Of a stretch of 64,000 bases of DNA, positions 1 through 32,231 are shown piece after piece. Numbering within the stretch: position 1 is the stretch's first letter; each line of letters opens with the position of its first letter. The notes under the pieces were generated by a model. That model was given only the letters and a program-made list of their open reading frames with translations, did not search any database and had not been told where the DNA came from. The position numbers were made by a program, and so were the translations under genes. Origin of the DNA: a candidate division FCPU426 bacterium (lineage in GTDB: Bacteria > Oederibacteriota > JAAXVQ01 > JAUVAV01); NCBI GenBank assembly GCA_040756875.1, contig JBFLYH010000003.1:160001-224000 (forward strand), given 5' to 3'.

Positions 1-2013
1 AAAATCACTCCAGTTGGTGAAACTGAAATTACTATTGATAAATATTTCATCTTGCTCATTTTTATCACTAATATCATAGATACTCAATATCTTTCTTTTG
101 AAATCTTTAGTGAAAAAAGGGCACGAAAGAAGATCAAAAAGTAGTAGTGTCAATTCCGCTTTTTTTATTCTTTTTTCCTGCGGAACTTCAGAGATGGTTT
201 CACAAATATACTGTTGCAATATACATTTCAACATATTATAACGTGGTTTATTTTCTATATAGAACAACAGAACAGTTATCGAGAAATAATTCAGTTTATA
301 TTTAACCTGTTTTTCCTCAAGATCAATATTAAAACACTTGCCCAACACTTCTTCTTCTAACCGGTAATCCCTCCCCAGTTCTTTTAATGCCGTAAGAAGA
401 TAAAGCGTTTCAATTTGATAATACTCCGTATTTTTATTTTTATTGATAATAATAAATATATTGTCATATATTTTTTTAAATATTACGTTTTTATTTTCAT
501 TGTTAAAATTGCCTTTAATTTTTGCTGCCTTAATCACTTTACTAATTATCATACATAATTTAATCGTCGTATTAACTCTCGGCGATACAGAATATATAAA
601 AAATACGAATTCCAGTAATTCTAATATTGCTTTAGTCACCTTCTTTTCCTGAGCACGTTTATCTTCAATACCGCAATATATTTTAATAAGTTTCAATATC
701 CTTCTATCAATACCAGCAAGTGTATAATTCAAAACATCCTTATATTCGATTCCGGCGTTATAAATAATTATTTTAAATTTTGTGATCAACTTATTCGAAC
801 TGATATATATTGAGTACTTTTTATCACCTTCATCAGTATCATCAGCAGCATCTGTATCAATATTATCTTTTAATTCAGCAGATACTTTGTATTTCATATA
901 TTTATTCAGCAAGTCGCTAATATTTGATTTCGCAATTGTTATTTTAGTAATAATGGGTTTTTTAAATAACATTGTTTTCGAGTCGTTAATATATAAATTG
1001 TATTCTTTTAATTGACGTCTATATTCTTTTACTATTTCAGTTTTGGTTTTTTCATCATTAAAATAAACAAAATAGTCATCTACATAACGGTATATTTCGT
1101 AGTCATTTTTATAATATATTCTATTTTTCTCTAATCCGCGTAAAACATTCAAATCAATTTTTTGCATTATTATTTCAGCAAATATTCTTGAAAACTCAGG
1201 ACCAATAACAATTCCATTGGTTTCTCCATAGTTCATGTTCTGCATCATAGTATCGAACTTCCCACCAAATGTAGCTTTAGATTCTTCCGTCTTTTCTTTT
1301 ACTATTTCCTTATTCAATATTGCCCAAGAAATGGAGTGGCTATAAATACTATCAAAGCACTTTAAGATATCGAATTTCATCATTTCGTTATATTTTTTTT
1401 CACATTCATGATACTTGTATGATTCGTAAAATTTGTATACATTGCTAAATTCTTTATATGTGAAATATGTTTTCAAACTTTCATATTCTTTATCATATTC
1501 TTCCATCGATTTGTGCTCGTGATCATGAGCTAACAATTCCAAATGTGTTTTATCTTTATAGTAGATATGTTTTGCCGTTTTATATGGTCTCCTGATTGAG
1601 AAAGGGCTAATATTACAATAATATAAAATCATTTCCTTATATTTATCATAGTGTTCAATTACTGCCAGTTGATTCTTTGGATGGATAATTGTTAATTGTC
1701 TAAAATCATTTTCATTATGGGATATCCTATAATTAAATGGTATCGTTGTGTAGTCCTTCGCACATTTCAGAGATATACTTTGATTTACAATAGGCATGTT
1801 TTTTGGAAAACCAAATAATAATTTTATAACTGACCCAAAAGACGGTTCGCTATTTCCCCATTTTAGTTTATTTTCCGCAAGGCATATTTTGTTACGATTA
1901 ATAAATTCTCGAAAACGCCGGTTTGAAAATGATATCGGAATTTCATATGGTAAAACATCGGAAAGAATCACTCTTTCTTTTTTCATACTTATCTTTTTTT
2001 TCTTGTGCTTCAT
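1..2013 (-). CDS. drt3b: Antiviral reverse transcriptase Drt3b (UG8-like), DRT type 3; 3' end runs off the window
   Basis: Not in the ORF track (no stop in window). Manual translation from the ATG at 2013 gives MKHKKKKISMKKERVILSDVLPYEIPISFSNRRF...KFDILKCFDSIYSHSISWA...QNMNYGETNGIVIGPEFSRIFAEII...YRYVDDYF (YVDD at about 1075-1086)...AELTLLLFDLLSCPFF...FSFTNWSDF. 671 codons to the edge; the N-terminal, RT-core and C-terminal segments I translated are in one frame. Starts 11 nt after the drt3a stop. Confidence 0.9.
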   Translation of the reverse strand, partial: MKHKKKKISMKKERVILSDVLPYEIPISFSNRRFREFINRNKICLAENKLKWGNSEPSFGSVIKLLFGFPKNMPIVNQSISLKCAKDYTTIPFNYRISHNENDFRQLTIIHPKNQLAVIEHYDKYKEMILYYCNISPFSIRRPYKTAKHIYYKDKTHLELLAHDHEHKSMEEYDKEYESLKTYFTYKEFSNVYKFYESYKYHECEKKYNEMMKFDILKCFDSIYSHSISWAILNKEIVKEKTEESKATFGGKFDTMMQNMNYGETNGIVIGPEFSRIFAEIIMQKIDLNVLRGLEKNRIYYKNDYEIYRYVDDYFVYFNDEKTKTEIVKEYRRQLKEYNLYINDSKTMLFKKPIITKITIAKSNISDLLNKYMKYKVSAELKDNIDTDAADDTDEGDKKYSIYISSNKLITKFKIIIYNAGIEYKDVLNYTLAGIDRRILKLIKIYCGIEDKRAQEKKVTKAILELLEFVFFIYSVSPRVNTTIKLCMIISKVIKAAKIKGNFNNENKNVIFKKIYDNIFIIINKNKNTEYYQIETLYLLTALKELGRDYRLEEEVLGKCFNIDLEEKQVKYKLNYFSITVLLFYIENKPRYNMLKCILQQYICETISEVPQEKRIKKAELTLLLFDLLSCPFFTKDFKRKILSIYDISDKNEQDEIFINSNFSFTNWSDF

Positions 2014-2024
2014 TCCATTACCCT

Positions 2025-3344
2025 TTACCACATCTCAATTATTTTTTTTAATTCATATGATTCGAAAGGCGAATATCTCTTTGTCTCAAAACCTTCGCTA
2101 AAACTATACTTCAATAACCTAGCTTTAAGTTGGGAAGTATGTATTTCATTAATAATTTTAGTTCGTAAATAGTTATCCAAGTGTTGTAAATCTATCTTGT
2201 CCGTCAAATGACAATTAGAATAGTAAATACCCACTAATATATTTTGTTTATTGCCCTTTAACCGAGTATTTCCAGTTAAATATCTCACCCTTTTAACGAG
2301 TATTTTCCTCGCTTCTTTTTCATTAATTCTGCTTAAATTATTATAGTGATCGAATGACACATTTATTTTCTTGATATATTTCATATATTTTTGCTTAGTT
2401 AATTTTGTTTTGACCTGACCATCTTTAAACTCAATTCTATATCCAAGGTAATCAAATTCGCAAGATTGCTTTTTATCTAACAGGTTAAAGATAGTTGTTT
2501 TATCAATATTTATTTTTAATTCATATTTTTGTTCGATTATATCTTTTACTTGTGCTATGTAATCCGTTTTATCGCCCATTGAACTTGGAGTGAAAATAAT
2601 AACAATATCGTCAACATATCTTGAATAATATGCAAGATTAGGTAGCTTGTTGATTTCTTTATCAATTTGACTCATATATATTTCTGCAAAATAAGCGCTA
2701 ACTCCAATTCCCCTCGGAATGCCTTTTTCACTCCCGGATAATTTTTTATACTCACTAAATATTTGTCGTACAATTTTTTTCGAAGTAGGTGTTAATAGAT
2801 CATTCTCATTTATTTGATTTATCAATCTATCTCGCGGGATACTTTCATAAAAATTGCTTATATCCGTTCTTAATACCTGTTTCGGGAACTTGTCTCCAAT
2901 GATTTTCAATAATTGATCTATTATTGTATTTCTGCTTGATTGTTTAACACCAAATAGTTTCGAAACATTCATTTGCAATTGTTTCATAATAAAATACTGC
3001 TCCGGCTTATCTCTAATAACGTAAATAAATTTACCGTCTTTATTTTTATTTGCTATTATTTCTACTTTAAAATCAGTCATCAATGCTTTTTGACTGACCT
3101 CCTCCAATTTCGCAGTTAGTTCTTTTTCCTTTTGTTCTTTTAGTTTTATTCTTTCACAATATATTTTATTACTTTCATCTTTAGTTAATTCTTTATTTTC
3201 TCTCAGCCGTATCGAATACTGTTTAATTTGTTCGGAGATTTTCTTAAGATCCGGAAAATATCTTCCCTCGAGATATATTCCTTTCCTATTTTCCAGATCC
3301 AATATTCTTCTAAAATTTTCTGCTGAAAACGATTGGCTTAGCAC
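2025..3344 (-). CDS. drt3a: Antiviral reverse transcriptase Drt3a (UG3-like), DRT type 3
   Basis: 439 aa; RT motifs RTDISNFYESI, GIPRGIGVSAYFAEIYM, RYVDDIVI, FDYLGY. GTG start with a purine-rich RBS. Directly upstream of a second, larger RT. Confidence 0.88.
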   Translation of the reverse strand: MLSQSFSAENFRRILDLENRKGIYLEGRYFPDLKKISEQIKQYSIRLRENKELTKDESNKIYCERIKLKEQKEKELTAKLEEVSQKALMTDFKVEIIANKNKDGKFIYVIRDKPEQYFIMKQLQMNVSKLFGVKQSSRNTIIDQLLKIIGDKFPKQVLRTDISNFYESIPRDRLINQINENDLLTPTSKKIVRQIFSEYKKLSGSEKGIPRGIGVSAYFAEIYMSQIDKEINKLPNLAYYSRYVDDIVIIFTPSSMGDKTDYIAQVKDIIEQKYELKINIDKTTIFNLLDKKQSCEFDYLGYRIEFKDGQVKTKLTKQKYMKYIKKINVSFDHYNNLSRINEKEARKILVKRVRYLTGNTRLKGNKQNILVGIYYSNCHLTDKIDLQHLDNYLRTKIINEIHTSQLKARLLKYSFSEGFETKRYSPFESYELKKIIEMW

Positions 3345-24766: not shown

Positions 24767-25747
24767 ATGGCTGAAACGCTCGTCACCGGCGCCACCGGCT
24801 TCATTGGCAGCCACCTGGTGGAATCCCTGCTCGCGGACCGGCACGCGGTCCGCTGCCTGGTGCGCAGGACGTCCAATCCGCGCTGGCTGCCGGTTGACCG
24901 CGTCCGCCTGGTTCAGGCGGACCTGGAATCCGGCGAGGGGCTGGACGCGGCCCTGGCCGGGGTGGAAGTCGTTTTCCATCTGGCCGGCGCGACCAAGGCC
25001 CTGTCCCGCCGCGAGTACCAGGCCAGCAACGTGGCGGCCACGCGGCGGCTGCTGGCGGCCGTGGCGCGGAACGCGCCGCACCTCAAGCGCTTCGTGTTCC
25101 TGAGCAGCCAGGCCGCGGCCGGGCCGGCGCCGGCCGCGCAGGTGCGCGACGAGAGCCACGCGTGCTCGCCGCTCACGCATTACGGCGCCAGCAAGCTGGA
25201 AGCCGAGCGGGTGCTGGCCGAGCACCCGGAAATTCCGGCCGTGGTCCTGCGCAGCGTGTCCGTGTACGGCCCGCGCGACCGGGATATGCTCGAACTGGTC
25301 AAGCCCTTCCGGCGCGGCTTCGCGCCGGTGATCGGCCAGGCGGACAAGCGCCTGACTTTCGTGCACGTGGCGGACCTGGTGCAGGCCCTGCGCCTGGCCG
25401 CCGAACATCCGGCCGCCGTCGGGCAGACGTATTTCGTGACCGACGGCCGGCAGTACAACTGGGCCGAAGTCAAGGCCGTGCTGGAGCGGGTCGCGGGCCG
25501 GCGCGCGCGTTCGCTGCGCATTCCCCTGCCCGCGGTGTGGCTCGTGGCCGCGGCAGCCGGCGCCTGGGCGCGGATCACGGGCAGGCCCTCGATCCTGAAT
25601 TTGAACCGGTTCCGCGAATTCCGCGCGGCCAACTGGAGCTGCAGCAGCGAGAAACTGCAGCGCGAACTGGGATTCAAGCCGCGCTTTGACCTGGAAACCG
25701 GGCTGCGCGAAACCGTGGCTTGGGCCCGGGAAAACCGCTGGTTCTAG
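24767..25747 (+). CDS. NAD(P)-dependent epimerase/dehydratase (extended SDR); candidate ceramide/3-keto-sphingoid reductase
   Basis: TGATGFIG, HLAG, YGASK, VYGPRD. Confidence 0.85.
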   Translation: MAETLVTGATGFIGSHLVESLLADRHAVRCLVRRTSNPRWLPVDRVRLVQADLESGEGLDAALAGVEVVFHLAGATKALSRREYQASNVAATRRLLAAVARNAPHLKRFVFLSSQAAAGPAPAAQVRDESHACSPLTHYGASKLEAERVLAEHPEIPAVVLRSVSVYGPRDRDMLELVKPFRRGFAPVIGQADKRLTFVHVADLVQALRLAAEHPAAVGQTYFVTDGRQYNWAEVKAVLERVAGRRARSLRIPLPAVWLVAAAAGAWARITGRPSILNLNRFREFRAANWSCSSEKLQRELGFKPRFDLETGLRETVAWARENRWF

Positions 25748-26949: not shown

Positions 26950-27678
26950 TTAAAAATTATTGATATAACTTAAGCCATATTTAAAAACAAAAGGCATTTC
27001 AAAGTTATCCATTTCAATAGTAAGGCGATTGACTCCAAAGTGGGCACCCAGCGAGGAAGACTCCGAGATTTGAGTCCTCAATTGGATGCCGATATCAATA
27101 CACGGTAGTAAATTTTGCACTTCGTCATTTCCGGAATATACGGTATTCGTCGGGTCAGTGGGATCCCTCCATTCCCAGCTTAAATGATTCCGAAAATATC
27201 CATATCCAATTCCATTGAAGATTTCTATATTAATGTTTTCCAAAGTAACTCCAAACATATATTTAACCATCAGGAGGGTTGCCACACTGGATGTGTTTAC
27301 ATCCCAATTTTGACTTCGTAAAGGAAGCGTAGGCGAAACTTGCTCATTAATGATGAAACTTTTTGCACCTGTTAGTGAATAGAAGGCGGGAGCAAACCCA
27401 ATTTTCATGTTTTCAACCGAAGGGATCTGTACGCCATAAAATGGTTCAACCATTATTCCTATATTACTGATATTATTACTCCGAGTATCCACTGTATAGC
27501 TTCCCACACCGGAAACTATGCTCCAATTAATCTCTATAAATCCTTGATTACATGACTTCTTCTCCTTAAATGCATTAAAAGCCTCTATTTCGCTCTCTGG
27601 TAAATTCATTACTTCTTCTGCCCAAGTCAGATTAAAAAATGTCATTAATATAATTAACCAAAGCAACGCAATTTTCAT
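26950..27678 (-). CDS. AT-rich exported protein, probable outer-membrane beta-barrel
   Basis: Signal peptide, alternating beta-strand pattern, C-terminal YGLSYINNF. Confidence 0.55.
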   Translation of the reverse strand: MKIALLWLIILMTFFNLTWAEEVMNLPESEIEAFNAFKEKKSCNQGFIEINWSIVSGVGSYTVDTRSNNISNIGIMVEPFYGVQIPSVENMKIGFAPAFYSLTGAKSFIINEQVSPTLPLRSQNWDVNTSSVATLLMVKYMFGVTLENINIEIFNGIGYGYFRNHLSWEWRDPTDPTNTVYSGNDEVQNLLPCIDIGIQLRTQISESSSLGAHFGVNRLTIEMDNFEMPFVFKYGLSYINNF

Positions 27679-27956: not shown

Positions 27957-28658
27957 TCAGATATTGTCTTTTTTTCTGTTACATTTTCCCTGCGCCCATC
28001 TTTCCCCCACCCACGGATACTCCTCCCGCCGCCGCGCGAAGGCGCGTCGCAGGGCAGGGGTCACGAAGGTTTCCCGCAGCCAAGCCTGCCAGCCATACCT
28101 GCGCTTTTGCTCCACGGCCCGCACCAGCGTGCGGGCAAGCCTGCCGGCGCGCGCATACACTTTCTTTTCCTGCTCAAACCCTTTTTTGTCGCGATGCTTG
28201 GAAATCCCCCAGGCCGACCCCACGGAGCTTCCGCCGCACAGCCAGATTGCCTGGCCCAGGCGCCGCGCGATGCTCCGGGTGCCGAACCAGTGCCCGGCCA
28301 CGCACAGCCCCGCGCCGTACTTGCCGGCCAGGGCCTGGCGGTAATAAAGGAAGGCGTGGCTGCGGTCCATGACCGCTTTGATTTGCGCGGAAACGTCGAA
28401 AGCGTAATTGGGGGTGGCCAGGACCAGGGCGTCGGCCGCGAGGATTTTGGGAAGCAGGGGGAGGTAATCATCCGGCACCGGGCAAGTGCCCTGGCGCATG
28501 CACTGTTCGCAGGCCCGGCAGAACTCCACCCAGCGATCCGCGGCGGTGAAAAGTTCGGTTTCCGCGCCCAGGCGGCGGCATTCCGCGAGAAAGAATTCCA
28601 GCAGGCGGCGGGTGTTGCCTTGCGGCCGGGGCGAGGCGCACAGACCGATGATCTTCAT
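27957..28658 (-). CDS. Iron-sulfur flavoprotein / NADPH-dependent FMN reductase family
   Basis: ASPRPQGNT, CRACEQC-x5-C, LATPNY, KAVMDR; start moved to MKIIG. Confidence 0.88.
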   Translation of the reverse strand: MKIIGLCASPRPQGNTRRLLEFFLAECRRLGAETELFTAADRWVEFCRACEQCMRQGTCPVPDDYLPLLPKILAADALVLATPNYAFDVSAQIKAVMDRSHAFLYYRQALAGKYGAGLCVAGHWFGTRSIARRLGQAIWLCGGSSVGSAWGISKHRDKKGFEQEKKVYARAGRLARTLVRAVEQKRRYGWQAWLRETFVTPALRRAFARRREEYPWVGERWAQGKCNRKKDNI

Positions 28659-28709
28659 GGCAATCGTCACCTCGCCCGGTTGGACTTTTCGTGGCATCAA
28701 TTGATTGAA

Positions 28710-28837
28710 TTCCCCTCCCCGAGATTAATGGCGGGAGGGGATGAAGGGGAGGGGGTGTCTAGCCTGTGACATCCGGAATAAAATCAGATTGAGGGACCCC
28801 TCACCCTCTCCCTCTCCCCGCTTGCGCGGGGCGAGGA
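28710..28837. repeat. CCCCTCCC/CCCTCACC-type REP-like inverted pair
   Basis: TCCCCTCCCC...GGGAGGGG..GGGGAGGGGGTG and CCCTCACCCTCTCCCTCTCCCCGC..GCGGGGCGAGG. Confidence 0.6.
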
Positions 28838-28883
28838 GAAAATAGTATTGGGGTAACCGCGGGATGCGCGGTCATTTCGCTGT

Positions 28884-31271
28884 TCACGCCAGCGGCGATT
28901 CCTCGTGCGCGGCCACCGGCATTTCGTACACCCGGTAGGTTTTGATGCGGCGGCCGCCGTTCTCCGCAATCTCCTGGTTGAGCTGCTGGTTGTCCTCCGG
29001 GACCCACGACAGCTCCCCGTGGGAATAGCCCAGGTGCTTGGCCGCACGGAACGACTCGAAATACAGCAGGGTTTCCAGCCCCCGGCGGCGGAATTCCTTT
29101 TTCACCGCCAGCAGGGCGAAGCGGATGGACTTGATCTTGCGGGAATAAAGGTAGAAGCTCAGCATGTCCGTGATCCCGACCTTGCCGTTGAAGCGCTTGA
29201 GCACCTCGCTGTAATTGGGCAGCAGCAGGGAGAACGCCACGGGCTTGCCCTGGACCTCCACGAAATGGACCAGGTCCGGCTCGATCAGGGGCTTGAGCTT
29301 GGTGCTGAGGTATTTCAGGTCCCCGGTGCCGAGGGAGGTGTAGCCCAGGGCCTCGGCGCCCACGTCGGTCAAAATGTCCATCAAGGCCTGCATCTCGCTG
29401 CGGAAGCGGCTCTTGCGGAAGCGGCGGGTGGTGACGCCCTCTTTTTGGCGCGTGCGCTCGGCCAGGCTGACCAGCCGGTCGGACAAGGAGCTGCGCGCCT
29501 CCAGTTGGAAGGCATAGAGGTCCTTGGCTTTGGCCAGGCCGAATCGCTCGAAAAACCCGGCGTAATAACCGGGATTGTAGGGCATCATGATCGCCGGCGG
29601 ATAATCGAAGCCTTCCACCTGGCAGCCCAGCCCGTCCAGGGGCGAAAACGCCATGGGGCCGCGCATAAGGGTCAGGCCCTTGTCCGCGAGCCAGGCGCGG
29701 GCCGCTCCCAGCAGCGCGGCCGCGGCGCCGTAGTCCTCGTCCACCTCGAAGTAGCCGAAGAAGCCGGTTTTTTCGTTGCGCTCGGTGTTGGCGCGATGGT
29801 CCACGGCCGCCACGATGCGGCCCACCACGTCGCTGCCCCGCCGGGCCAGGAACGCCTGGGCCTCGCCGTGGCGGTAGAAGGCGTTCTTGTCGCGCCGGAA
29901 CAGGATCTCCACCTCGGAAAGCAGGGGCGGAACCCACTGCTTGTCGCGGTGATAGATGGTCCACGGCACCTTGAGGAACTGCTTTTGGGGCGAGGCGTCC
30001 TTCTCGCGGCTCATGAGCGCCTTGGCCCGCGAAGGCACGCGCATGGGCACGCTCACGACCTCGACCGGCGCTCCGGGCGCGTTGGGGCCGATAATGCCGA
30101 GCTCCGTGCCCACGAGCTGGAGTTTTTCCAGGGCGAAGTCCAGCTCCTCGCGCTTGTGGGTGGCGGTGTACGAGGTGCGCACGCAGGCCAGGCCCGGCGG
30201 CACGGCCGGCGAGACCACGGGGTTCACGTACACGCCCTCCTGCTCCAGGCGCTTGGCGAACTGGAAGGTCTTCAAATCGTCGCCGATGATGATGGGGATA
30301 ATGGCCGACTCCGTGGGCCAGGTGCGGAAGCCCAGGGCCTTGACGCGCTCCAGCATGTAGGCCACGTTTTCCCGCAGCTTCACCAGGCGCTCGGGCTCCC
30401 GTTCGAGGATGTTCAGGGCCGCCAGGGTCGCGGCCACGGCGGCCGGGGGCGGCGCGGCCTGGAAAATGAAGGCGCGCGAGTTGTGCTTGAGGAACGAAAT
30501 GACCTTGGCCTCGCCGGCGATGAAGCCGCCCAGGCTGGCGAAGGACTTGGAAAACGTGGCCATGACCAGGTCCACGTCGTCGAGCACGCCCAGTTCCTCG
30601 CAGGTGCCGCGGCCGCGCTTGCCGAGCACGCCGATGCCGTGCGCCTCGTCCACCATCAGGCGGGCGCCGTATTTCTTGGCCAGGGGCACGATGCGCTTGA
30701 GGTCCGCCAGGTCGCCTTCCATGGAAAACACGCCGTCCACCACGATCAGCTTGCCCACGTCCTTGCCTTCCAGGTTCTGCAGGATGCGCTCCAGGTCTTC
30801 CATATCGTTGTGGCGGAACTTCAGCAGCTTCCCGTAGGCCAGCCGGCAGCCGTCCAGGATCGAGGCGTGGTTGGTGCGGTCCGAGATCACCACGTCGCCG
30901 CGCGACACCAGGGTGGAGATGACCCCCTGGTTGGTGGTGAAGCCCGTGGTGAAGACCAGAGCCGCCTCTTTCTGCATGAACTTGGCCAGGCGCTCCTCGA
31001 GCTCCACGTGCAGGTCGATGGTGCCGTTTAAAAAGCGCGAGCCCGTGCAGCCGGTGCCGTATTTTTCCACGGCCGCGACAGCCGCGGCCTTGACCTCGGG
31101 ATGCGTGGTCAGGCCCAGGTAATTGTTCGAACCGATCATGACGGTCTTCTTGCCGTTCATGATGGAGGTGGTGTCCACGGCGGCCTGATTCATCCGGAAA
31201 TACGGATATAAGCCCAGGGCCATGACTTTTTCAGCGTCCTGGTAATCGTAGGCTTTCTTAAAAAGATCCAT
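28884..31271 (-). CDS. spt: Serine palmitoyltransferase (PLP alpha-oxoamine synthase) fused to a bacterial ceramide synthase-like GNAT domain
   Basis: N-terminal about 400 aa: GLYPYFR, GSNNYLGL, GSRFLNGT, NHASI, DGVFSMEGD, DEAHG, TFSKSF. C-terminal about 370 aa: PWTIY..DKQWVPPL, VGRIVA, GFFGYFE, RGPM, VEGFDYPP..MPYNPGYY, ELSWVPEDN, KTYRVY. Confidence 0.85.
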   Translation of the reverse strand: MDLFKKAYDYQDAEKVMALGLYPYFRMNQAAVDTTSIMNGKKTVMIGSNNYLGLTTHPEVKAAAVAAVEKYGTGCTGSRFLNGTIDLHVELEERLAKFMQKEAALVFTTGFTTNQGVISTLVSRGDVVISDRTNHASILDGCRLAYGKLLKFRHNDMEDLERILQNLEGKDVGKLIVVDGVFSMEGDLADLKRIVPLAKKYGARLMVDEAHGIGVLGKRGRGTCEELGVLDDVDLVMATFSKSFASLGGFIAGEAKVISFLKHNSRAFIFQAAPPPAAVAATLAALNILEREPERLVKLRENVAYMLERVKALGFRTWPTESAIIPIIIGDDLKTFQFAKRLEQEGVYVNPVVSPAVPPGLACVRTSYTATHKREELDFALEKLQLVGTELGIIGPNAPGAPVEVVSVPMRVPSRAKALMSREKDASPQKQFLKVPWTIYHRDKQWVPPLLSEVEILFRRDKNAFYRHGEAQAFLARRGSDVVGRIVAAVDHRANTERNEKTGFFGYFEVDEDYGAAAALLGAARAWLADKGLTLMRGPMAFSPLDGLGCQVEGFDYPPAIMMPYNPGYYAGFFERFGLAKAKDLYAFQLEARSSLSDRLVSLAERTRQKEGVTTRRFRKSRFRSEMQALMDILTDVGAEALGYTSLGTGDLKYLSTKLKPLIEPDLVHFVEVQGKPVAFSLLLPNYSEVLKRFNGKVGITDMLSFYLYSRKIKSIRFALLAVKKEFRRRGLETLLYFESFRAAKHLGYSHGELSWVPEDNQQLNQEIAENGGRRIKTYRVYEMPVAAHEESPLA

Positions 31272-31314
31272 TCCTAATCACCTCTGTCAACAGCAACATT
31301 CTCAAACGAGGGCG

Positions 31315-31343
31315 ATTGTAGAAGGTTCGCCCGGCCTTGTCAA
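31315..31343 (-). promoter_or_regulatory. Sigma70-type promoter of the spt fusion gene
   Basis: TTGACA-17 bp-TACAAT. Confidence 0.75.
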
Positions 31344-31410
31344 TCCCTTCGCAAAATATACATATAGGATTGCAGGATTGGTATGCGAAGAGAGGGAGCC
31401 CCCACCGGAT

Positions 31411-31452
31411 CTATATGTACTTTCGGCGCCGGGGGATTTCCTGCGGTCGCCC
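31411..31452 (-). repeat. GCGACCG-AGGAAGTCCC family repeat
   Basis: Reverse complement GGCGACCGCAGGAAATCCCCCGGCGCCGAAAGTACATATAG resembles 54288-54334 and 39965-40015. Confidence 0.6.
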
Positions 31453-31478
31453 AGATCATCGGTCCCATTTAGGGAACT

Positions 31479-32231
31479 TTAGGCCGGGGGAGCGCTCCGC
31501 TGCCCTTGCCCCGGCTGGCCCTCTGGCCGCGGTTCCTGCTCCAGGAAATTTTCGATCTGCCGCTCTTCTTCCTGCATGTGCCGCTGCTCGAATTCTTTTT
31601 GCGTAAAGCAGTTTTTCTCGAGCATGAGCTGGGTCAGGGCAATGATCCGGTTGTCCAGGTGGCGCACCACGTCCAGCACCGGGTCAGGCAGCTGGTTGTG
31701 GTCCAGGGGCGAAGGCGGCCGCTCGCCCGAGGGCAGGCGCACGACCTTGCCGGGATTTCCGACCACCGTGCAGCCGGCCGGCACGTCGCGCACCACCACG
31801 GCCATGGCGCCGATCTTGGCGCCCCGGCCGACGGTCAGCGCGCCGAGCACCTTGGCCCCCACGCCGATGACCACGTCCGGCTCGATGGTGGGATGGCGCT
31901 TGACCTTTTGCAGGGAGGTGCCGCCCAGGGTCACGCCCTGGTAGAGGAGCACGTTGTCCCCCACCTCGGCCGTCTCGCCGATGACCACGCCCTGGCCGTG
32001 GTCGATGAACACGCCGCGGCCGAGCCTGGCCCCGGGATGGATCTCGATCCCGGTCAGGAAGCGCGAAACGTGCGACACCAGACGGCCCAGGGTCTTGAGT
32101 TTGAGGCGCCAGAGCGCGTGCGCCAGCCGGTGCAGCCACAGGGCGTGCAGCCCCGGATAGCACAGCAGCACCTCGATGATGTTCCGTGCCGCCGGGTCCT
32201 TGGCGAAAACCGCTTTTACGTTGTCGAACAT
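31479..32231 (-). CDS. cysE: Serine O-acetyltransferase
   Basis: [48 protein letters not shown]. Confidence 0.95.

Follow-up and report, generated by a model that had tools for sequence, protein, structure and literature searches.

A conserved fusion of Spt-like and bCerS-like domains in an uncultured candidate phylum, probably serving the first two steps of bacterial ceramide synthesis

Can the first two enzymes of bacterial ceramide synthesis be carried on a single polypeptide? The question is raised by a gene in a 64,000 nt stretch of contig JBFLYH010000003.1 (positions 160,001 to 224,000, hereafter the window), from a candidate division FCPU426 bacterium, in which a domain resembling serine palmitoyltransferase (Spt) is followed by one resembling the bacterial ceramide synthase bCerS. 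The first-pass annotation had described a single open reading frame (ORF) of 795 aa without naming its strand; this was borne out, the gene lying on the minus strand and dividing as follows.

28884..31271, minus strand: the whole fused gene, one uninterrupted frame of 795 codons plus stop.
30093..31271, minus strand: Spt-like pyridoxal phosphate (PLP) domain, residues 1-393, from Pfam, NCBIfam and PDB matches, active-site residues and a tree.
29991..30092, minus strand: linker, residues 394-427, a conserved IGPNAPGAPVE followed by a variable part.
28887..29990, minus strand: bCerS-like tandem-GNAT domain, residues 428-795, from a Pfam match, an AlphaFold2 (AF2) model, Foldseek and the gene context of homologues.

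Judged from the sequence, the product is quite probably a cytoplasmic protein with two activities, which would carry out steps one and two of the ceramide pathway, with a short-chain dehydrogenase/reductase (SDR) encoded nearby acting as the reductase of the third. The PLP domain, probably a homodimer like other Spt enzymes, would condense L-serine with a long-chain acyl thioester to form 3-ketosphinganine; the tandem-GNAT domain, held on a flexible linker of about 35 residues, would N-acylate this to 3-keto-dihydroceramide ('oxidised ceramide'); and the SDR at 24767..25747 would then reduce the 3-keto group to give dihydroceramide. The domain identities (by homology and fold), the conserved linkage of the genes, and the recurrence of the fusion as a single clade are shown by the data; from these we infer the substrates, the product, the order of the steps and any kinetic advantage, such as retention of the amphiphilic intermediate.

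Nine motifs had been read in the protein, eight of which are exact: LYPYF (residues 21-25), GSRFLNGT (77-84) and TFSKS (239-243) in the N-terminal half, and WVPPL (446-450), VGRI (483-486), GFFGYFE (503-509), RGP (537-539) and ELSWVPEDN (753-761) in the C-terminal half. The ninth, EGF..PP..MPYNP.YY, is present with three residues, not two, between PP and MPYNP. Residues 44-384 are covered by a Pfam Aminotran_1_2 match of 208 bits, and the N-terminal half ranks best with Spt, ahead of KBL, BioF, ALAS and CqsA, in both NCBIfam and PDB comparisons. Among the 48 NCBIfam families matched, the top model is NF047600 SerpalmtaseCFB, the Bacteroidota-type Spt (528 bits), with the Spt-beta model (406 bits) and the BioF/Kbl models (about 403 bits) as runners-up. 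The best PDB match is the Spt of Sphingobacterium multivorum (3a2b/8guh; 410 bits over residues 6-387), followed by ThAOS, a BioF/KBL-type enzyme of Thermus (328 bits), alphaproteobacterial Spt (286 and 279), KBL (275), a cysteate-C-fatty acyltransferase (256) and BioF (214). An excerpt of PMC10196870 names 15 Spt residues around PLP and serine; mapped onto the N-terminal half, 14 of these are identical (N49, G77, S78, F80, L81, H135, S183, D208, A210, H211, T239, S241, F270 and K242, the PLP lysine, which lies inside TFSKS), the sole replacement being Ile269 in place of Met271 of the Sphingobacterium enzyme.

A tree of alpha-oxoamine synthases (AOS), the family to which these enzymes belong, was built from 70 rows. 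A branch with a Shimodaira-Hasegawa-like approximate likelihood ratio test (SH-aLRT) value of 93 separates the 66 AOS that are GNAT-linked or come from sphingolipid loci, among them the gene of the Sphingomonas Spt locus and that of the E. coli sphingolipid locus, from the outgroup. The latter has four rows, namely BioF and Kbl of E. coli and two further AOS of the window genome (G000), one a BioF encoded beside BioA and the other a member of the BioF/Kbl family. The N-terminal domain thus groups with genes of Spt loci, not with KBL/BioF; as the outgroup is small and long-branched, the tree backs the score-based result without standing alone. The initial assignment of the PLP domain to Spt is therefore upheld by the model and structure rankings, the tree and the conserved active site, which together support an alpha-oxoamine synthase nearest to the Bacteroidota-type Spt.

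Several observations weigh against taking this as far as a serine-specific enzyme. The N-terminal half scores under every curated equivalog cut-off for Spt (NF047600, 528 vs 640 bits; NF047599, 406 vs 500; NF047603, 323 vs 670), the branch between Spt and Kbl/BioF is drawn against only those four long-branched rows, and the amino-acid substrate is not fixed by sequence, since the Sphingobacterium Spt is described in the excerpt of PMC10196870 as recognising serine, including its hydroxyl, mainly through the PLP phosphate and water. The same architecture could accordingly be imagined with another chemistry, in which alanine, glycine, cysteate or a similar compound is condensed and then N-acylated to yield a deoxy-ceramide or sulfonolipid-like product: the Sphingobacterium enzyme also turns over alanine and glycine (PMC10196870, same excerpt), and the solved cysteate-C-fatty acyltransferase still reaches 256 bits. 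We regard this as unlikely, given that Spt models and structures far outscore KBL, BioF and the cysteate enzyme, that the active site departs from that of a characterised Spt at a single position, and that ceramide synthesis has been described with this very triad of Spt, GNAT and SDR, which is present in Myxococcus genomes.

bCerS itself was reportedly defined in a study by Stankeviciute et al. (2022), and the C-terminal half had been annotated as bCerS-like. Taken alone it gives no significant match to NCBIfam models or to PDB sequences, and its only Pfam match, in two stretches, is to Acetyltransf_1 (29 bits; cut-off 20.7). An AF2 model built from 111 sequences (pLDDT 89, pTM 0.87) has the form of a tandem GNAT, with Foldseek neighbours that include 5kf1 (a glucosamine N-acetyltransferase, E 8e-15), 7q3a (MAB_4324), 2wpw (a tandem GNAT of clavulanate) and MshD, and with FemX and MprF among the lower-ranked matches. 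As the nearest folds transfer acyl groups to amines, this fold fits N-acylation of an amino-ketone. Homologues are numerous: of 8000 sequences scored, 1764 reach E<=1e-3, and most of the 120 listed are proteins of 370-393 aa that stand alone, found in Myxococcus and Corallococcus among others. The clusters returned by the ESM Atlas (367-393 aa; Planctomycetota, Bacteroidota, Myxococcota and Chloroflexota) are all either unnamed or labelled as GNAT.

The gene context of three proteobacterial homologues gives this family a candidate function. A tblastn search of the C-terminal half against annotated plasmid records found matches of 31-34% identity over 90-97% of the domain (E 1e-33 to 1e-41). 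The Sphingomonas parapaucimobilis match, annotated as 'N-acetyltransferase', is at the bCerS position, in a locus that runs NAD(P)H-binding protein, acyl carrier protein (ACP), Spt (as a class-I/II aminotransferase), ATP-binding protein, lptF, lptG, desaturase and then the match itself. In Roseomonas the match likewise comes after LptF/G permeases and a desaturase, and in E. coli it is YghO, in a locus of lptF, lptG, AOS, ACP, an epimerase-type SDR, a fatty-acyl-AMP ligase and yghO. In Caulobacter, bcerS is CCNA_01212 (PMC9393093, in part) and adjoins the sphingolipid-specific lptG2 (CCNA_01213) and lptF2 (CCNA_01214), according to a portion of a preprint (bioRxiv 10.64898/2026.04.12.717747) that also draws the sphingolipid operon of E. 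coli UTI89 alongside those of Caulobacter and S. wittichii. The Sphingomonas, Roseomonas and E. coli matches have lptF/lptG or spt, acp and cerR types of gene as neighbours, and the family of the C-terminal half thus sits where bCerS sits.

Linkage to Spt-like genes was assessed in the best 80 loci for the C-terminal half, the family being present in at least 602 species genomes. One locus is fused (L006), in 53 an Spt-like AOS shares the strand of the GNAT gene, and 26 have no AOS, half of these with less than 2 kb of upstream sequence available and the other 13 with at least 2.8 kb. The gap between AOS and GNAT is 458 nt or less in 51 of the 53 linked loci, which include two Myxococcus species; the AOS comes first in 44, and the GNAT first in nine, all of them from Acidobacteriota. 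As a side observation, loci L033, L044 and L068 have two tandem GNAT genes, sometimes beside an spt-GNAT pair, and proteins P0025, P0146-P0154 and P0160 (770-828 aa) consist of a GNAT unit of about 390 aa doubled in one chain; such doubled proteins or tandem genes may provide a second acyltransferase of the pathway.

In sequence, tandem-GNAT fold, bCerS position in proteobacterial loci and linkage to Spt, the C-terminal half agrees with its annotation, and it appears to be a bCerS-like acyltransferase that is likely to form ceramide. Other evidence counts the opposite way. The connection to bCerS is one of synteny in three Proteobacteria at 31-34% identity, rather than an alignment to CCNA_01212; the 13 loci with at least 2.8 kb of AOS-free upstream sequence, some of which form a clade of their own, indicate that the family is not exclusively linked to Spt; and the window genome encodes a stand-alone paralogue (L002; G000:C3:235389-236519, locus coordinates 1501..2661, minus strand), outside the window, of 386 aa and 34% identical to the fused domain, that scores slightly above it with YghO (168 vs 140 bits) and the Roseomonas protein (179 vs 156 bits), the Sphingomonas protein preferring the fused domain (162 vs 154 bits). 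As two of the three proteobacterial proteins are thus matched slightly better by the paralogue, the fused domain is only a candidate for the one-to-one orthologue of bCerS. These points, together with nearest solved folds that are acetyl rather than long-chain acyl transferases, could mean that the fused GNAT is no ceramide synthase, instead performing short-chain N-acetylation of a long-chain base or another amine, while the paralogue or an unrelated enzyme makes ceramide. This seems improbable, because linkage to Spt-like genes is a feature of the fused subfamily and not of the paralogue, with an Spt-like gene on the strand of the GNAT gene in 53 of 80 species and a single frame here; the neighbours of the paralogue include no AOS or lipid gene, being a secreted metallophosphoesterase and small ORFs; and a GNAT domain joined to Spt has an obvious acceptor in the Spt product. 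A bCerS-like role for the fused domain hence remains the preferred assignment.

A natural fusion had been claimed at the outset, and whether the two domains are truly joined can be judged from related genomes. The phylum set comprised 99 species genomes in 23 families, with G000 as the genome carrying the window. Single open frames of 798-810 aa that match the window protein from residue 1 to about 787 are present in G032 (89%), G025 (73%), G023 (72%) and G019 (70%), and pieces cut by contig ends run through or up to the linker, as far as residue 509 in G020 and 417 in G024. Families f1 and f2 have 15 genomes, seven of which, counting G000, carry the fusion; it is found in none of the 84 others. 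In six f1 genomes there are only paralogue-level matches. A further species genome, L006, has a single fused frame of 792 aa, and 24 of the 35 long proteins found with the C-terminal half, from JGI, ENA, NCBI and Logan clusters, belong to the fused clade at 52-100% identity. The search for other fusions proposed at the start has therefore yielded six related genomes of one order, L006 and about 23 metagenomic protein clusters.

Joining by misassembly or a frameshift is easy to envisage, since most species have the AOS and GNAT genes next to each other in the same orientation, 0-150 nt apart, and one indel could link them. The recurrence of the open frame in independent assemblies (G032, G025, G023, G019 and L006) and in the 24 clusters, with a conserved linker motif, makes such an artefact vanishingly improbable, and it was rejected. 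The continuity across the linker that was to be confirmed is provided by a second assembly of the probable source run, in which 28700..31500 lies in one contig of 16,321 bases with no differences over 2801 bases; run X2 yields short conserved pieces only.

The linker is where the first-pass annotation had placed it, and the Pro/Ala richness ascribed to it is only moderate, with five Pro and five Ala among 34 residues. In 23 fused homologues IGPNAPGAPVE is kept after the Spt domain and a stretch of variable length comes next, while the start position (MDLF...) is common to all 23 of the full-length fused homologues. In the full-length AF2 model, linker segments 415-417 and 419-425 have pLDDT values below 50. 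The same model (pTM 0.64) gives no confident arrangement of the domains, which counts among the points against the bifunctional reading. Channelling of the intermediate, raised at the outset, would be a putative property. A complex prediction for the two halves, scoring 0.00 against a mark of 0.32, gave no answer and was counted neither way.

The fusion seems to have a single origin within this group. The fused N-terminal halves (eight rows) and the fused C-terminal halves (seven rows) each form one clade with support of 100. In the AOS tree the fused clade and the unfused genes from its own phylum make up a set of 13 rows (SH-aLRT 90), with no resolution of the branching inside it, and the GNAT tree leaves the placement relative to same-phylum unfused genes open. 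In family f12 the genes are adjacent but separate in the four loci checked, with an AOS of 404-428 aa followed by a GNAT of 387-403 aa. These data support the view that the fusion arose from the widespread adjacent spt-bcerS pair within one order of an uncultured phylum. As this conserved fusion is nested among adjacent unfused pairs, it forms independent comparative evidence that Spt and the acyltransferase act consecutively.

Sphingolipids had also been proposed for a lineage in which they were thought to be unreported. A best match at E<=1e-110, a level reached by the Spt-like gene only, is found in 52 of the 99 genomes, and, as about half of these genomes carry the pathway genes, members of the phylum probably make sphingolipids. 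One fused-clade protein is labelled 'candidate division FCPU426' at NCBI, a candidate phylum filed under 'Bacteria candidate phyla'. The proposal of an 'unreported' lineage holds only insofar as this is an uncultured candidate phylum in which around half of these genomes have pathway genes.

Fused forms outside this clade have also been found. Clade B contains P0155 and P0156 (782 and 780 aa), which keep the domain order of the window protein and are 41% identical to it overall; the members of this clade (P0155-P0157) have a short, Arg-rich linker unrelated to IGPNAPGAPVE. The N-terminal halves of P0155 and P0156 join an unfused Gemmatimonadales gene in both trees (FastTree local support 95; unstarred in the quick tree). 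The trees need two changes to account for the fused clade described above (clade A) and clade B, and an approximately unbiased (AU) test does not reject a single fused clade (p 0.284); an independent origin of the clade B fusion is hence suggested and not shown. Among 1.84 billion representatives, five of the best 150 matches span both halves in one stretch, these being P0009, P0157, P0161, P0180 and the fragment P0196. In P0161 (919 aa) and P0180 (933 aa) a PilZ domain comes first, followed by AOS and then GNAT, and a PilZ domain, which binds cyclic di-GMP (c-di-GMP), ahead of an Spt-acyltransferase hints at second-messenger control of the lipid pathway.

Another type of fusion involves a different acyltransferase family in the reverse order. 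P0172 (814 aa) and P0168 (1022 aa) have a FemAB-like domain followed by an AOS that is 49-53% identical to the N-terminal half of the window protein, and P0168 has a C-terminal PilZ as well. P0182, P0191, P0214, P0227 and P0272 (789-827 aa), which match through a C-terminal AOS only, may be similar.

A bolder reading treats the fusion as a 'Rosetta stone' for the passing of the Spt product straight to the acyltransferase: the protein would be a self-contained 3-keto-dihydroceramide synthase that channels a toxic intermediate, with acylation before reduction, and such fusions would have been selected more than once (clade A, clade B and the PilZ-Spt-GNAT type). We offer this only tentatively, as a possibility somewhat short of even odds; were it true, the PilZ-Spt-GNAT type would put sphingolipid synthesis under c-di-GMP control.

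A candidate reductase for the third step lies on the opposite strand.

24767..25747, plus strand: CerR-like extended SDR of 326 aa, with a Pfam Epimerase match, 3.1 kb from the fusion gene; candidate 3-keto reductase.

No other gene in the genome matches the sphingolipid-locus SDRs of E. coli (32% identity, E 7e-36; the next at 2e-9) and Sphingomonas (27%, E 7e-20; the next at 2e-14) as well as this one does. It reaches no curated model, the best being HpnA at 140 bits vs a cut-off of 368. Linkage was counted over the 54 AOS-bearing loci among the best 80 (one fused and 53 with a separate AOS): full-length SDR homologues, scoring at least 130 bits, occur in 43, weak or cut ones in four, and none in seven, including L006. 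An SDR is beside Spt and GNAT in all five unfused loci of the same phylum as the window, and in G032 and G019 it likewise keeps its place, at a distance of 2-3 kb from the fused gene. The association is weakened by G023, which carries the fusion with no SDR match at E 1e-20, and by the L006 genome, in which the best SDR match is about 80 kb from the fused gene.

The rest of the proteobacterial gene set was sought in G000. A tblastn search with the fatty-acyl-AMP ligase of the E. coli sphingolipid locus gave no match at E 1e-3, and with the ACPs of the E. coli and Sphingomonas loci as queries the sole match was a weak one at C1:538756 (E. coli ACP, E 9e-4). This genome thus seems to lack the dedicated supply of acyl-ACP known from the proteobacterial pathway, which fits a CoA-using Spt of Bacteroidota type; as neither a dedicated ACP nor an ACP-synthetase was found, the acyl donor would probably be acyl-CoA.

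The gene is flanked by candidate signals of its own; promoters were sought with a sigma-70-like consensus on both strands of 28500..31700, against a control of 50 shuffles.

31343..31315, minus strand: promoter-like site TTGACA-17 nt-TACAAT, 11 of 12 consensus positions matched.
31279..31285, minus strand: ribosome-binding site GAGGTGA, 7 nt upstream of the ATG, read from the sequence.
28808..28791, minus strand: terminator-like hairpin about 80 nt past the stop codon, a consensus match only.

The promoter had been noted previously as TTGACA/TACAAT and is confirmed as the sole such site in the interval (shuffle mean 0.5, sd 0.7). Immediately upstream of the fusion gene is a CysE (serine O-acetyltransferase, above the NCBIfam cut-off; 31479..32231, minus strand), such that two serine-consuming enzymes are encoded side by side, and directly downstream is a flavoprotein of FMN-reductase type (27957..28700, minus strand). 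The place of CysE is kept in L090, L091, L093 and L094, and that of the flavoprotein in L090, L092 and L007. Between the SDR and the fusion gene, 26950..27678 (minus strand) holds a 242 aa ORF that begins like a signal peptide and matches no Pfam family; it has a GC content of 0.37, vs 0.61 for the window, and may be a foreign insertion. The G/C-rich intergenic stretch just past the fusion gene (28728..28836) also aligns with short segments of other run X1 contigs and has a summed depth of about 90, vs 55 elsewhere; it is probably a small dispersed repeat of the genome.

The order of the pathway in bacteria is disputed, Spt, bCerS and CerR being set against a eukaryote-like scheme with reduction first, and the part of PMC11087976 that treats this question argues for acylation before reduction. 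The conserved Spt-acyltransferase fusion adds independent evidence for that order. It also makes substrate hand-over testable within a single protein, and the fused gene offers a compact module for the heterologous production of ceramide precursors.

Comparison with known systems indicates what is new here. In Caulobacter the same three types of enzyme are found, namely an Spt-like AOS, a GNAT-type N-acyltransferase (here of a family that takes the bCerS position in related proteobacterial loci) and an NDUFA9/epimerase-type SDR (CerR, CCNA_01222). The Caulobacter genes for Spt (CCNA_01220) and bCerS (CCNA_01212) are separate and eight gene numbers apart, and are accompanied by a dedicated ACP and ACP-synthetase, as given in a portion of PMC9393093, whereas here there is one polypeptide and neither accessory was found. 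Spt and bCerS are both cytoplasmic in Caulobacter, while CerR is periplasmic (PMC11087976, in part), and the shared location of the first two fits a fusion. The earlier statement that the two are separate genes in characterised organisms agrees with these gene numbers and with the E. coli and Sphingomonas loci. YghO of E. coli is 31% identical to the C-terminal half over 90% of its length, and its locus holds every other gene type of the Caulobacter pathway; it differs in being a separate gene on the opposite strand to the AOS, and the proteobacterial branch is distant from the fused clade in the GNAT tree. Sphingobacterium multivorum Spt (3a2b, 8guh), the best solved match, with which 14 of 15 active-site residues are shared, is a stand-alone protein of about 398 aa without an acyltransferase domain. 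The tandem-GNAT N-acetyltransferases (5kf1, MshD 1ozp, MAB_4324 7q3a and 2wpw) resemble the C-terminal half in fold (Foldseek E 8e-15 to 2e-11, query TM-scores 0.50-0.58), yet are only 11-15% identical to it and use acetyl-CoA with the amines of sugars or thiol-sugars.

No description of an Spt-bCerS fusion was found in the literature, a scope that takes in the text of the Black Sea survey PMC11334938, from which the words 'fused' and 'fusion' are absent, and that leaves its supplements outside. Closest in arrangement are the adjacent pairs of Myxococcus, Nitrospirota, Zixibacteria, Gemmatimonadota, Acidobacteriota and others, which are homologous to both halves (AOS 44-61%, GNAT 34-43%), lie on the same strand and usually have an SDR alongside, but comprise two genes, not one. 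The comparison thus supports the view that the bacterial ceramide pathway itself is known, and that the new element is the presence of its first two enzymes on one chain.

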